A model generated the notes under the pieces. That model ran no database searches, was not told where the DNA came from, and was given only the letters and a program-made list of their open reading frames with translations. 13,045 bases of DNA from a virus. A program made the translations under genes and the position numbers. Every line of letters begins with the position of its first letter. Position 1 is the first letter of the stretch. This document shows, one piece after another, positions 50 through 2,265 of this stretch. The stretch lies in UHGV virus genome UHGV-0111502. One strand, given 5' to 3'.

Positions 50-754
50 TTATCCGATATCGCTTCGGGAAGTTAATAACAACTTTAATTCTGACTCAAG
101 TTCATCAACTCTTTCAGTCAGTTTCTGGATATGGTGAATCAGTGGAACAACCAGACGTTCGTACATTACACCTTCGGCAACAAGGCCATTGCTGGAAATA
201 GCTTCAGGAGCATCATCTTCGTTAGCTGGTCGCCAGTGTACAAACTGAGGGGCAATTTCTCCTACTTCCTCGGCAATCAATCCGTAGAACCCCCAGTCAC
301 GCCTGTCATTTTCGCATTGCGACCTGTACCACACAGGGCGCATCCTGAAAATGACATCGGCGTGCTCTGAATCTATCGTCTCTACTGAATGTTTATAGCG
401 AATAGACGATGTTGACCGCAGTACAGACGAAATTGCAGGGTCAGGATTAAGATAAAGGTTTGCCGCCGCTGTAGTCGTGCCCAATCCCCACAAATAAAAC
501 GCTTCACGGCCAGTCAACGGGTAAAAATCTCCACCATAACGACCGCTTTCCAGATCGTTCACTTCCAGTTTGTTTTTCAGCTTATTATCAACTTCAGTTT
601 TTGTGTATCTGGTACTGATATCCTGCTTTGCACTGGTCATATCAGTCTGAAGCGTTGATACTTTTCCGTTAATTGAGGAAATATCTTCCTTAGTTTTACT
701 GACATCTCCCTTTAGCGTGGTGATATCTCCTGGAATTACTGTCGATGTAGCCAT
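50..754 (-). CDS. Tail fibre/tail spike-like protein with N-terminal coiled-coil-like region and C-terminal intramolecular-chaperone (peptidase S74-type) domain
   Basis: 234-aa ORF; ATG at 754-752 preceded by GAGGGAG Shine-Dalgarno. N-terminal heptad-like repeats (DITTLKGDVSKTKEDISSINGKVSTLQTD). C-terminal block SSIRYKHSVETID...DWGFYGLIAEEV...NGLVAEGVMYERLVVPLI...ELESELKLL resembles tail-fibre C-terminal auto-chaperone domains. Family call from memory, not a search. Confidence 0.55.
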   Translation of the reverse strand: MATSTVIPGDITTLKGDVSKTKEDISSINGKVSTLQTDMTSAKQDISTRYTKTEVDNKLKNKLEVNDLESGRYGGDFYPLTGREAFYLWGLGTTTAAANLYLNPDPAISSVLRSTSSIRYKHSVETIDSEHADVIFRMRPVWYRSQCENDRRDWGFYGLIAEEVGEIAPQFVHWRPANEDDAPEAISSNGLVAEGVMYERLVVPLIHHIQKLTERVDELESELKLLLTSRSDIG

Positions 755-763
755 TTGTCTCCC

Positions 764-1045
764 TCACATCCAGCCACGAAGTTGATGCTCAACAACAACC
801 GCGTATTTATCGAATATTGACGATTTTTTTGCATCATTAATGATGCGCACGTTTACAAAATATCCGTCTTCCTTAACACATACCGGTTCGCCATCTTCAG
901 TCAGTTCTCCGGTTTCTTTGTACACGTTACCTATCACGTCAATAAGAATATCATCCTGCATCGACTCGTCATCATAATAGCCAATACTCTCCATAAAGGC
1001 CGAAAAGTCGGCCCTGTCTGCAAATTTGAGTGTTAAATCTTTCAT
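764..1045 (-). CDS. Hypothetical small acidic protein (93 aa) within the tail-fibre cluster
   Basis: ATG at 1045-1043 overlaps the TGA stop of the upstream gene (ATGA) and is preceded by GGGGGAGAG Shine-Dalgarno; the stop at 764 lies within the ribosome-binding region of the next gene. No family recognised. Confidence 0.45.
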   Translation of the reverse strand: MKDLTLKFADRADFSAFMESIGYYDDESMQDDILIDVIGNVYKETGELTEDGEPVCVKEDGYFVNVRIINDAKKSSIFDKYAVVVEHQLRGWM

Positions 1046-2265
1046 TTAATACTCTCCCCCATTTGCGCATCAGTTAATTCTTTATGCCAGATACGCAGAT
1101 TACGGATATGACCAAAAAGATGATACTCCCCATTAGTGCCCTGCCCTCCAATTCGCAATACTGCCCGTGGAACAATTGAAGTCCATGTTGTTTTTGCCGC
1201 AACAGATAATTCACCATTACATACGGCCTGAACATCTCCATCAGCGCCACAACGGAAGCCTGAAATGATTTTCCTCTGGGTTGTTGCCACATATTTATTA
1301 CACCCTCCCATAGAAATAAAAGGAGAACCGGCATCAGAGAAATTATTACCACGGAATCCATGCGTGAACAGACCATTTTCCTGATAATCTTTAACATTAA
1401 AGATTAATGGTGATTTGCTGGGAGGGATATCCCAGTTTTTATTAACTTCAACAAGAGCACTGAATGGTAATCGGTGAATATTGTTTCTTACAGGTATTGT
1501 CACCATGTCGCTGGAGCGAGTGCCAGGAGCCCCTTCAGTAATGATAAATGACGTCCTGTACGACCCAATCTCCGCCTGAGGCATCGCAATATCTAACGTA
1601 GAGCCATTGGGGATAATACTGATTCCAGGCATCGCCAGGATTTCAAATCTTGAGCTGATTATCATTTCCGCATCTGCAAAAAGAGTGGCGGTAAACAACC
1701 ACCATTCACCGACTCTTTCTGCCGTCACCGTCACATTATTTCCATGAACAACATTTCCCGTAACAGGATCCAGAGCTGCATCTGAATGAAAAACAAACGC
1801 ACCATTATCAGACATTTTTCCGAACCTTGCACGACACCGGGAATTATCACTTTTCGTCAGACACGATATCGTCGTATAAGAACCTGCCGGGCAGGTGTAA
1901 GCATCATTCGTGTTTACAGCAATTGCCTGATATCCTTGTGCTGTCGGATTTTCATTAATAACAGTTATCCTTCCATAGTTAAACCCCTTATCACTGTCGA
2001 ACGACTCAACAGACACACTACCCGTGTTATTCCATGCTTCTGGTGTATTTGAATTTCTGAAATAGTTTGTTCTCTGTCCTTCAATCAGCAAACCTTCTCG
2101 TTCAAATCGCGGTTCGTCAACTTCAGCAACGGTTAATACACCTGATTTATTAATGTATGTTGCACCTGATGCGCGTTTGAAGCTAACAACCTTATCGGAT
2201 GGCATTTTAATAACATCATCACCTACGGTTATTTGCTTATAACCAGGCGAAAAGCCAGCAAGCAT
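1042..2265 (-). CDS. Phage tail fibre/receptor-binding protein remnant with C-terminal concanavalin-A/LamG-like domain; probably N-terminally truncated by the deletion junction near 2285
   Basis: 407-aa ORF; C-terminus LRIGGQGTNGEYHLFGHIRNLRIWHKELTDAQM has the LamG-like lectin pattern common in tail fibres. The first ATG (2265) has no convincing Shine-Dalgarno, and its frame stays open upstream into portal-derived DNA, consistent with a truncated gene. Confidence 0.5.
   Translation of the reverse strand: MLAGFSPGYKQITVGDDVIKMPSDKVVSFKRASGATYINKSGVLTVAEVDEPRFEREGLLIEGQRTNYFRNSNTPEAWNNTGSVSVESFDSDKGFNYGRITVINENPTAQGYQAIAVNTNDAYTCPAGSYTTISCLTKSDNSRCRARFGKMSDNGAFVFHSDAALDPVTGNVVHGNNVTVTAERVGEWWLFTATLFADAEMIISSRFEILAMPGISIIPNGSTLDIAMPQAEIGSYRTSFIITEGAPGTRSSDMVTIPVRNNIHRLPFSALVEVNKNWDIPPSKSPLIFNVKDYQENGLFTHGFRGNNFSDAGSPFISMGGCNKYVATTQRKIISGFRCGADGDVQAVCNGELSVAAKTTWTSIVPRAVLRIGGQGTNGEYHLFGHIRNLRIWHKELTDAQMGESIK

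Follow-up and report, generated by a model that had tools for sequence, protein, structure and literature searches.

Results

Gene content and setting of the locus

We analyzed a 13,045-nt stretch of viral DNA (UHGV-0111502; hereafter the window), in which three ORFs occupy the minus strand at positions 50–754 (234 aa), 764–1045 (93 aa) and 1042–2265 (407 aa). The initial annotation had described them as a tail-fiber-like cluster, and this identity was borne out. The cluster extends past position 50, where the initial annotation had closed it: a fourth cassette gene begins at position 39 and leaves the window, its visible translation reading MDITPFLHALCAV, and the phrog_1443 profile matched the full 97-aa protein with an E-value of 2.8e-58 (Table 1). 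The arrangement differs, as had been claimed, from the lambda stf-tfa pair, the genes that follow being those for the 93-aa, 234-aa and 97-aa proteins and not tfa, of which only a fragment lies ~0.3 kb past the window edge.

Table 1 Features of the fiber cassette and of the adjoining deletion junction (window coordinates)
Feature	Position	Strand	Basis
Fourth cassette gene, first 13 codons (97 aa in full, phrog_1443)	1–39	−	NZ_AP025220.2 and REL606 annotation
Intact gene of 234-aa short fiber protein (N-terminal segment, coiled coil, pre-cleavage segment, S74)	50–754	−	Pfam, PDB
SSIRYK, codons 116–121, predicted Ser116/Lys121 autoproteolysis dyad	392–409	−	S74 profile starts at residue 116
Heptad-patterned coiled-coil segment, residues 11–50	605–724	−	Hydrophobic spacing
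Conserved N-terminal segment, codons 1–20, MATSTVIPGDITTLKGDVSK (putative docking segment)	695–754	−	Six-phage alignment
Shine-Dalgarno GAGGGAGA of 234-aa gene, overlapping the 93-aa stop codon	758–765	−	Read from sequence
Intact gene of 93-aa acidic protein (phrog_1361)	764–1045	−	ORF list, profile
Shine-Dalgarno GGGGGAGAG of 93-aa gene	1052–1060	−	Read from sequence
5′-truncated side-tail-fiber (Stf-type) gene, codons 367–781 of 781	1042–2288	−	Alignment to REL606
Chimeric 229-aa ORF, portal codons followed by ~19 out-of-frame stf-derived codons	2229–2918	−	ORF list
Portal/stf deletion junction, 2-bp TA microhomology	2287–2288		Three-way alignment
Portal gene remnant (lambda B type), ~first 210 of 533 codons	2287–2918	−	Pfam, nucleotide alignment, PGAP

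The DLP12 site of NZ_AP025220.2, which adjoins appY and ompT, showed 99.9–100% identity to window positions 1–10485, and the window very probably represents a decayed lambdoid prophage at the DLP12 site of E. coli, with the region studied here forming the distal end of its late operon. The intact, inducible phage PhiR49_1 displays the same order, Nu1-A-W-B ... J-lom-stf, then the 93-aa, 234-aa and 97-aa genes ... ompT. These sequences are already recorded in RefSeq, labeled pseudogene, ‘tail fiber domain-containing protein’ and hypothetical protein; in NZ_AP025220.2, PGAP lists the stf fragment as a pseudogene without its N-terminus.

The ATGA overlap and the strong ribosome-binding sites noted initially are present: start and stop codons of the 93-aa gene and the stf remnant overlap at 1042–1045, and the last two genes retain good translation signals in the form of the Shine-Dalgarno sequences at 1052–1060 and 758–765. 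A promoter scan revealed no sigma-70-like promoter on the minus strand from window position 1 to ~5,700; promoter-like sites were rarer than in shuffled sequence, and the minus strand around the cluster had none. Terminator-like hairpins were present inside the stf fragment in the same promoter/terminator scan. A defense-system reading was rejected, PADLOC giving 0 matches for all four proteins.

The 407-aa ORF and the deletion junction

The first member of the cluster had been taken for a complete 407-aa protein. As judged by alignment, the ORF is instead the 3′ remnant of a 781-codon gene of the lambda Stf type, starting at an internal Met. The intact 781-aa protein of REL606 was 99% identical to the fragment over residues 367–781, the homology beginning at window position 2288, 8 codons before the ATG at 2265, and the sequence before this ATG contains no Shine-Dalgarno. 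The profile phrog_1419 aligned with the fragment at positions 375–793 of 793 and with the REL606 protein from end to end. The N-terminus of the intact REL606 allele matched PF08400 with 224 bits, and its first 94 residues resembled the 94-aa PDB chain 9e7m_Ta (‘Tail fiber protein’; E 4.5e-48). The window copy begins at codon 367 and is devoid of this N-terminal domain; the part lost here, by comparison with the intact allele, is the lambda-type tail-attachment domain together with the shaft.

The remnant consists of a GTA-head-spike-fiber-type domain followed by a ConA/LamG-type domain. NF048003 (GTA head spike fiber, NCBIfam) scored 67.6 bits compared to the cut-off of 36, with residues 60–251 of the 407-aa ORF aligning to profile positions 1–181 of 182. 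In the 415-residue model of the fragment, pLDDT exceeded 90 at residues 72–250 (~64–242 in ORF numbering), and this best-modeled stretch largely coincides with the NF048003 match. The proposed LamG-like C-terminus held at the level of fold and homologues, but not by the score of the ORF itself: PF13385 (Laminin_G_3) matched with 16.2 bits against a gathering score of 27.6 (E 0.012), spanning profile positions 93–149 only, and the 415-aa fragment retrieved no family at E ≤ 0.01. The same Pfam family was matched by 17 of 40 homologues of the fragment (best E 2.8e-7), and the predicted structure of the C-terminal part of the ORF is a jelly-roll beta-sandwich with a LamG/pentraxin/lectin-type fold. 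The predicted fold and the homologues thus support a LamG/ConA-like assignment despite the sub-threshold score, and the two retained beta-sandwich domains probably bind glycans.

The claim that the cluster lies beside a deletion proved correct. When the window was aligned with both the portal gene of PhiR49_1 and the stf gene of REL606, the breakpoint fell at 2287/2288, with nucleotide identity to the former gene ending at position 2287; the portal remnant matched Pfam Phage_portal_2 (E 1.6e-44) at profile positions 2–171 of 354 only and is labeled ‘phage portal protein, missing C-terminus’ by PGAP. The two breakpoints are ~17.3 kb apart in intact PhiR49_1, with head and tail genes between them; an illegitimate deletion very probably removed ~17 kb, from portal codon ~211 to codon 367 of the side-tail-fiber gene. 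The frame of the chimeric 229-aa ORF differs from that of the stf remnant, which it overlaps by 37 nt counted from the ATG at 2265. Only 2 of 5,426 complete E. coli genomes carried the portal/stf junction, suggesting that it is probably recent; the intact state of the downstream ORFs would therefore be explained without selection.

The 93-aa acidic protein

The acidic character ascribed to the 93-aa protein was confirmed by its pI of 4.31. Structure prediction returned a confident small alpha/beta model, for which structural neighbors offered no informative match, and a PDB sequence search with the protein gave nothing credible. When 1.84 billion representatives were searched exhaustively with HMMER, only 50 matches emerged, essentially all of them stand-alone proteins of ~90–120 aa or shorter partial sequences. 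Domain fusions were discarded as a clue to function: the three matches in proteins of 1,800–2,900 aa consisted of multiple short stretches (E ~1e-4 to 1e-7) that resemble chance matches or repeats. Within the cassette, the 93-aa protein is a candidate for an assembly or adaptor role.

The 234-aa S74 fiber protein

The presence of a C-terminal S74 auto-chaperone domain in the 234-aa protein was upheld above the Pfam threshold, Peptidase_S74 (PF13884) scoring 27.2 bits (gathering score 22) with residues 116–172 aligned to profile positions 1–57 of 58. The SSIRYK-type site that the initial annotation had asked about is present at residues 116–121, placing a Ser-x4-Lys pattern at the start of the domain. 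It aligned with SGIEYK of PDB chain 8hqz_d, a 1076-aa ‘L-shaped tail fiber assembly’ chain that matched the 234-aa protein with an E-value of 2.1e-7, and STSSIRYK was unchanged in 49 short alleles. A C-terminal heptad helix follows the start of the S74 domain.

The coiled coil expected in this protein fits the heptad pattern at its N-terminal residues 11–50, where hydrophobic residues at 11, 14, 18, 25, 28, 32, 35, 39, 46 and 50 are spaced 3-4-7-3-4-3-4-7-4; the P22 tail needle gp26 and the LPP zipper were matched weakly. The N-terminal ~20 residues were conserved across otherwise differing downstream fiber alleles of 215–576 aa, the segment of EC100 reading MVTKTVIPTDITKLK, and phrog_4563 and phrog_19752 matched residues 1–32 only. 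The whole protein corresponds to positions 1147–1383 of phrog_3299 (1385 positions), a profile that also matches the Stf shaft. Homologues in phages PhiR49_1, IdasGreatGrand and PhiR55_1 were 94–96% identical.

The cassette in other coliphages

A triad composed of a fiber protein with a conserved C-terminal region, a 92/93-aa acidic protein and an S74 fiber protein starting with MATSTVIP was found in the lambdoid phages PhiR49_1 and 2G7b, in ESCO3 (Queuovirinae), in tunus and phiE31-2 (Drexlerviridae) and in the T5-like EC100. Among the 74 IMG/VR loci at which the 93-aa gene could be located, 73 had an upstream ORF with the Stf C-terminal region and a downstream ORF starting with MATSTVIP or MAISTVIP (73 of 73 downstream ORFs). 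The upstream ORFs measured 742–868 codons from stop to stop in 68 of the 73 cases and 312–437 in the other five. The conserved C-terminal tail of Stf reads HLFGH.RN.R.WHK.LTDAQ.GESIK, and the large homologue carries the database name ‘lateral tail fiber protein’ in PeterMerian and KurtStettler. Fiber alleles reassort among the IMG/VR loci, and a DNA block at window positions ~690/711–1123 was ~90% conserved between phages with differing flanking alleles. The defective DLP12-site prophage of REL606 has an intact cassette and a truncated J. Taken together, the compared sequences mark the triad as a mobile cassette of lambdoid, T1-like, 9g-like and T5-like coliphages. The cassette is widespread and already annotated in RefSeq and in many phage genomes, and its occurrence here is an ordinary finding; our literature search found nothing specific on this lambdoid cassette.

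Alternative explanations of the locus

The initial annotation had named an origin of the three ORFs as fragments of one disrupted larger gene as a finding that would speak against it. This applies in part to the 407-aa ORF, a truncated stf, but not to the 93-aa and 234-aa ORFs, which were separate genes in every intact relative compared. For the latter two, an origin as pieces of one larger fiber gene could be argued from phrog_3299, which spans the whole 234-aa protein as well as the Stf shaft, and some phages may have a single chain. We consider this extremely improbable, since separate ORFs of the same sizes occur in 6 of 6 independent phages from four groups and at 73 IMG/VR loci, each ORF has its own start codon and a conserved N-terminus, and the 93-aa family is essentially made up of stand-alone proteins besides the shorter partial sequences; the comparative data contradict a one-gene origin. 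An intact three-gene cluster headed by a complete 407-aa LamG-type protein is very improbable as well. Its reading frame is open for 407 codons from the ATG and its C-terminal part has a predicted lectin-like fold, but the homology to the 781-aa protein continues upstream of that ATG up to the junction, the ATG is not preceded by a Shine-Dalgarno, coverage of phrog_1419 is confined to positions 375–793, only five of 73 IMG/VR upstream ORFs fall at 312–437 codons compared to 68 at 742–868, and PGAP calls a pseudogene. The alignment to full-length alleles refuted a stand-alone gene of this length.

It also appears unlikely that the small genes (93-aa, 234-aa and fourth) have been kept for a function in the lysogen, be it read-through expression supplying superinfecting lambdoid phages in trans, a recombination reservoir or a role in the host. 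Such retention would be compatible with the intact 93-aa and 234-aa ORFs and their strong ribosome-binding sites, with the cassette surviving intact in further defective prophages at the DLP12 site, for example in REL606 with its truncated J, and with the conserved linker block, which would permit homologous exchange with incoming phages. Against it stand the probably recent junction with its two carriers among the 5,426 complete genomes, the lack of a minus-strand sigma-70-like promoter in window positions 1 to ~5,700 and the 0 PADLOC defense matches. We consider it highly probable that the locus is a deletion-truncated relic of a mobile lateral-tail-fiber cassette in a decayed DLP12-site prophage.

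Discussion

The deletion-truncated cassette shares features with several known fiber systems. Like the Stf/Tfa system of Ur-lambda, the intact REL606 allele carries the lambda-type ‘prophage tail fibre N-terminal’ domain (PF08400), and the intact stf allele of PhiR49_1 shares a late operon with J and lom, which precede it. Unlike in lambda, the distal half of the protein is formed by the GTA-spike-fiber-type and ConA/LamG-type domains, the 93-aa and S74 fiber genes stand in the place of tfa, and the N-terminal half of the window copy is deleted. Compared to the endosialidase/T5 pb1 type of chaperone (MEROPS S74, PF13884), the 234-aa protein has the full-profile match above threshold and the Ser-x4-Lys at the domain start followed by a C-terminal heptad helix; its passenger of ~115 residues is very short next to a large tailspike or long fiber, and its cleavage is a prediction.

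For DT57C LtfA/LtfB and phiEco32 gp14/gp15, the lateral fibers have been proposed to be branched and made of two proteins, the second attaching through its N-terminus (PMC4728585, PMC10713586). The cassette resembles these systems in its two fiber genes, consecutive in DT57C and phiEco32, in the short conserved N-terminus of the second protein that is thought to dock on the first, and in the C-terminal S74 self-cleaving chaperone, as seen in the 8hqz_d match. In the aligned alleles, the conserved N-terminus of the second protein is independent of the variable distal part, as in the DT57C type. Unlike in that type, the first protein here lacks S74 and terminates in lectin-like domains, the two fiber genes are always separated by one for a 93-aa protein, and the second protein is minimal (234 aa), with no recognizable receptor-binding domain before the cleavage site. 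Multi-protein lateral fibers have also been noted in small siphoviruses, and the lateral fiber loci of Drexlerviridae and Queuovirinae in the BASEL collection have been described as variable, as conserved mainly N-terminally and as sometimes encoding two or more proteins (PMC8594841). The triad order is the same in tunus, phiE31-2 and ESCO3; the loci of those two groups belong to functional virulent phages, whereas the copy studied here is a truncated remnant whose prophage has no tail genes left.

These comparisons suggest how the cassette may work in intact relatives. The large protein would hold the tail tip by its N-terminal domain and display its C-terminal lectin-like domains. Trimerization of the second fiber protein would be aided by the S74 domain acting as an intramolecular chaperone, which may then release itself by cutting at the predicted Ser116/Lys121 site. 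The mature stub of ~115 residues, a coiled coil with a short segment, could dock on the first fiber via its conserved N-terminus, and the outcome would be a two-protein fiber resembling DT57C LtfA/LtfB. The 93-aa protein, translationally coupled and always encoded between both fiber genes, would most likely help to assemble the junction or act as its adaptor. Two observations count against this scheme. The mature 234-aa product has no obvious receptor-binding domain, which leaves a tip or branch role uncertain, and the first protein has lectin-like domains, not a shaft, at its end, which suits a branch or cap less obviously than DT57C LtfA does. What is left in the window is a 3′ fragment of stf devoid of promoter and ribosome-binding site, the intact 93-aa and 234-aa genes and the start of the fourth gene; because all tail genes are gone, the cassette here cannot build a fiber and is a relic. 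Counting against a mere relic, the 93-aa and 234-aa genes are fully intact with strong ribosome-binding sites, and some expression or a role in the lysogen may persist.

More tentatively, and as a whole rather doubtfully, the Stf C-terminal tail, the 92/93-aa protein and the MATSTVIP N-terminus may constitute a three-part docking junction of lateral fibers shared by lambdoid, T1-like, 9g-like and T5-like coliphages, in which a dedicated adaptor or chaperone role would fall to the 93-aa protein and that of a minimal cap to the 234-aa protein; the orphan copies of this prophage might still be made, and incoming phages might use them in trans or acquire them by recombination.

The window itself is a routine scar of prophage decay and matters little. 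The wider cassette is a portable lateral-fiber module of four coliphage groups, and its conserved linker sequences could serve to swap receptor-binding parts. Engineering the host range of lambda-like and T1/T5-like phages would profit once the roles of its 93-aa member and of the minimal S74 protein have been worked out.

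Truncation of the first fibre gene

The initial annotation took the 407-aa ORF as an intact first gene of a three-gene tail-fibre-like cluster; this premise was wrong, as the ORF is a gene fragment. Translation from window position 2289 gave 415 residues, 413 of them identical to residues 367–781 of a protein that E. coli B REL606 carries intact (781 aa, annotated “prophage tail fiber N-terminal domain-containing protein”). The homology starts 8 codons before the ATG at 2265, which has no Shine-Dalgarno sequence. The REL606 protein carries the N-terminal domain of the lambda-type side tail fibre, Stf (PF08400, 224 bits), and its first 94 residues matched PDB 9e7m_Ta (“Tail fiber protein”) with an E-value of 4.5e-48. 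It also matched phrog_1419 from end to end, of which the window ORF covered only positions 375–793 of 793.

A three-way alignment of the window with the portal gene of phage PhiR49_1 and the stf gene of REL606 located the breakpoint at a 2-bp TA microhomology (GGGTA versus GGATA). The junction keeps ~210 of 533 portal codons and stf from codon 367 on; the head and tail genes that separate the two breakpoints in PhiR49_1 span ~17.3 kb. The deletion has truncated stf and removed all tail genes. The portal frame continues for ~19 codons into stf-derived DNA to a stop at 2229 and differs from the frame of the stf remnant, therefore no in-frame fusion was formed, and PGAP calls both pieces pseudogenes. 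A 3.2-kb query was compared with 5,426 complete genomes of E. coli; while 3,531 of them matched at least part of it, only two (NZ_AP025220.2 and NZ_AP027685.1) contained the junction itself, which makes the portal::stf deletion look recent and lineage-specific. NZ_AP027685.1 diverges again at about window position 2384.

Genomic setting and translation signals

Over positions 1–10485 the window shared 99.9–100% identity with NZ_AP025220.2 at its DLP12 prophage site; appY, ompT, envY and nfrA lie just left of the window. On the minus strand, the cluster comes after nohD (Nu1), terminase A, W and the truncated portal gene, in that order. An intact phage of the same type, PhiR49_1, has Nu1-A-W-B, head genes, tail genes, J-lom-stf and the 93-aa, 234-aa and 97-aa genes, with ompT further on.

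Coordinates of the cluster and of other features of the window and of two further loci (L001; L009, T5-like phage EC100)
Feature	Position	Strand	Source
407-aa ORF (stf fragment)	window 1042–2265	minus	ORF list
93-aa ORF	window 764–1045	minus	ORF list
234-aa ORF (S74)	window 50–754	minus	ORF list
Fourth cassette gene, first 13 codons	window 39–1	minus	
Fourth cassette gene, full (97 aa)	L001 11746–12039		
Portal/stf breakpoint	window 2287/2288		three-way alignment
Conserved DNA block	window ~690/711–1123		
Second scar	window 7604–9912		
Rz-type lysis gene	window 7604–8074		
rrrD remnant	window ~8059–8229		
OmpC-family porin gene	window 8830–9912	plus	
Region diverging from NZ_AP025220.2	window 10486–13045		
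EC100 downstream fibre gene	L009 2001–3731		

The physical description of the cluster was borne out: three consecutive minus-strand ORFs were placed exactly, with the ATGA overlap and the ribosome-binding sites. The start of the 93-aa gene, preceded by GGGGGAGAG, overlaps the stop of the 407-aa ORF at 1042–1045, and the 234-aa gene, preceded by GAGGGAGA, starts 9 nt past the 93-aa stop. Both genes are intact with good translation signals. No promoter-like site was found on the cluster strand within ~5.7 kb upstream of them, so transcription, if any, must read through the remnant late operon. The module in this genome is a relic.

A fourth cassette gene (97 aa) starts 10 nt past the 234-aa stop with an AAGGAGG ribosome-binding site and runs beyond the window edge. 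Its product belongs to phrog_1443 and had no Pfam, NCBIfam or other match. This gene follows in the lambdoid cassette versions (REL606, PhiR49_1, 2G7b) and is absent from phage tunus.

Two further features of the prophage lie outside the cluster. At the second scar the rrrD lysozyme gene is reduced to a C-terminal remnant adjoining an intact Rz-type lysis gene, and no holin gene is annotated; the OmpC-family porin gene is intact here and IS1-split in REL606. Past the gene for the Q antiterminator, the repressor region of NZ_AP025220.2, the closest complete genome, is replaced by ORFs of 285, 322 and 234 aa on the minus strand. Because the window leaves that genome past 10485, the source-strain prophage is a mosaic not represented in the complete-genome collection.

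Domains of the three proteins

The LamG-like C-terminus proposed for the 407-aa ORF stood at the level of the fold, with Pfam Laminin_G_3 matching 17 of 40 homologues (best E 2.8e-7), but not by its own score, which was below the threshold (16.2 versus 27.6 bits). Residues 60–251 matched the NCBIfam “GTA head spike fiber” domain (67.6 bits, cut-off 36). Together, these matches indicated that the stf fragment bears two beta-sandwich, lectin-like domains.

The 93-aa protein is acidic (pI 4.31), as had been noted. It belongs to phrog_1361, function not assigned, and had zero Pfam, NCBIfam and PADLOC matches. An exhaustive search of 1.84 billion proteins returned 50 representatives, essentially all of them either stand-alone proteins (90–120 aa) or shorter partial sequences; none was a convincing fusion. 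The AlphaFold2 model was confident (pLDDT 86, pTM 0.73), with a strand, two helices and a four-stranded sheet. Sequence and fold are uninformative, and the only clues to function are the fixed position and translational coupling of the gene.

Both features ascribed to the 234-aa protein were recovered. Pfam Peptidase_S74 scored 27.2 bits (threshold 22), its profile beginning at residue 116, and a coiled coil was indicated by a heptad hydrophobic pattern at residues 11–50 and a weak match to that of the P22 tail needle. Residues 116–121, SSIRYK, form a Ser116/Lys121 pair with Ser-x4-Lys spacing, which recurs as SGIEYK in PDB 8hqz_d (a 1076-aa “L-shaped tail fiber assembly” chain; E 2.1e-7), and STSSIRYK was invariant in 49 short alleles from the IMG/VR loci. 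Self-cleavage is predicted from this motif. The stretch from the coiled coil to the predicted cleavage site holds no recognisable receptor-binding domain, and the protein is at the short end of the 215–576 aa spanned by downstream fibre proteins.

The EC100 downstream fibre protein has CDERLK in place of the usual S74 S-D-x-R-x-K, and its predicted nucleophile may be Cys rather than Ser. Separately, positions 1147–1383 of phrog_3299 (a 1385-position profile, function not assigned) matched the whole 234-aa protein and positions 214–383 the shaft of the intact Stf-type protein, so the two-protein arrangement may exist as a single long chain in some phages.

A conserved and mobile cassette

The organisation of the cassette is conserved in working phages. 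The same gene order (a large fibre protein sharing this C-terminal region, a 92/93-aa protein joined by start/stop overlap, and a fibre protein that ends in an S74 domain) occurred in six phages of four groups: lambdoid PhiR49_1 and 2G7b, Queuovirinae ESCO3, Drexlerviridae tunus and phiE31-2, and T5-like EC100. For phages PeterMerian and KurtStettler, the database entries of the homologous large protein read “lateral tail fiber protein”. Among 80 IMG/VR loci chosen with the 93-aa alignment, the 93-aa gene was located in 74, and 73 of these had an upstream ORF with the same C-terminal region, always ending HLFGH.RN.R.WHK.LTDAQ.GESIK. These upstream alleles fell into two classes, one at least 90% and the other about 45% identical to the window. 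The downstream ORF began MATSTVIP or MAISTVIP in 73 of the 74, with alleles that were short (~227–234 aa) or long (~346 aa); both upstream classes occur with the short one, indicating that the cassette parts reassort.

The conserved DNA block, which spans the 93-aa gene together with 27 codons at the end of the large gene and 14 at the start of the S74 gene, was ~90% conserved in phages with differing flanks (ESCO3, 2G7b, PhiR63_1, HannyBb, Tritos). It resembles a conserved linker through which fibre modules could be exchanged by homologous recombination, a pattern to be expected of a recombination linker combined with a conserved interaction hub.

Proposed working and relation to known fibres

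In intact phages, the lambda-type N-terminus of the large protein would anchor it on the tail tip, with putative glycan-binding domains distal. The second protein would trimerise with the aid of its S74 chaperone, shed the chaperone at Ser116 and dock through its conserved N-terminus, giving a two-protein fibre, with the 93-aa protein as a probable assembly factor or adaptor. Two-protein fibres of such kind have been proposed for DT57C LtfA/LtfB and phiEco32 gp14/gp15 (PMC4728585, PMC10713586).

The region falls into known classes, namely lambda-type side tail fibres whose distal module has been exchanged, the S74 chaperone family, and the multi-protein lateral fibres found in small siphoviruses and T5-like phages (PMC8594841). 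The closest characterised system is DT57C LtfA/LtfB, from which the cassette differs in that its first protein has lectin-like C-terminal domains rather than an S74 domain, its two fibre genes are always separated by the 93-aa gene, and the second protein is minimal. The sequences are already present in RefSeq and many phage genomes, and the finding is real yet ordinary. What modest interest there is concerns the cassette in general, not the window remnant: what the 93-aa protein does, and what purpose a mature S74 protein of ~115 residues serves.
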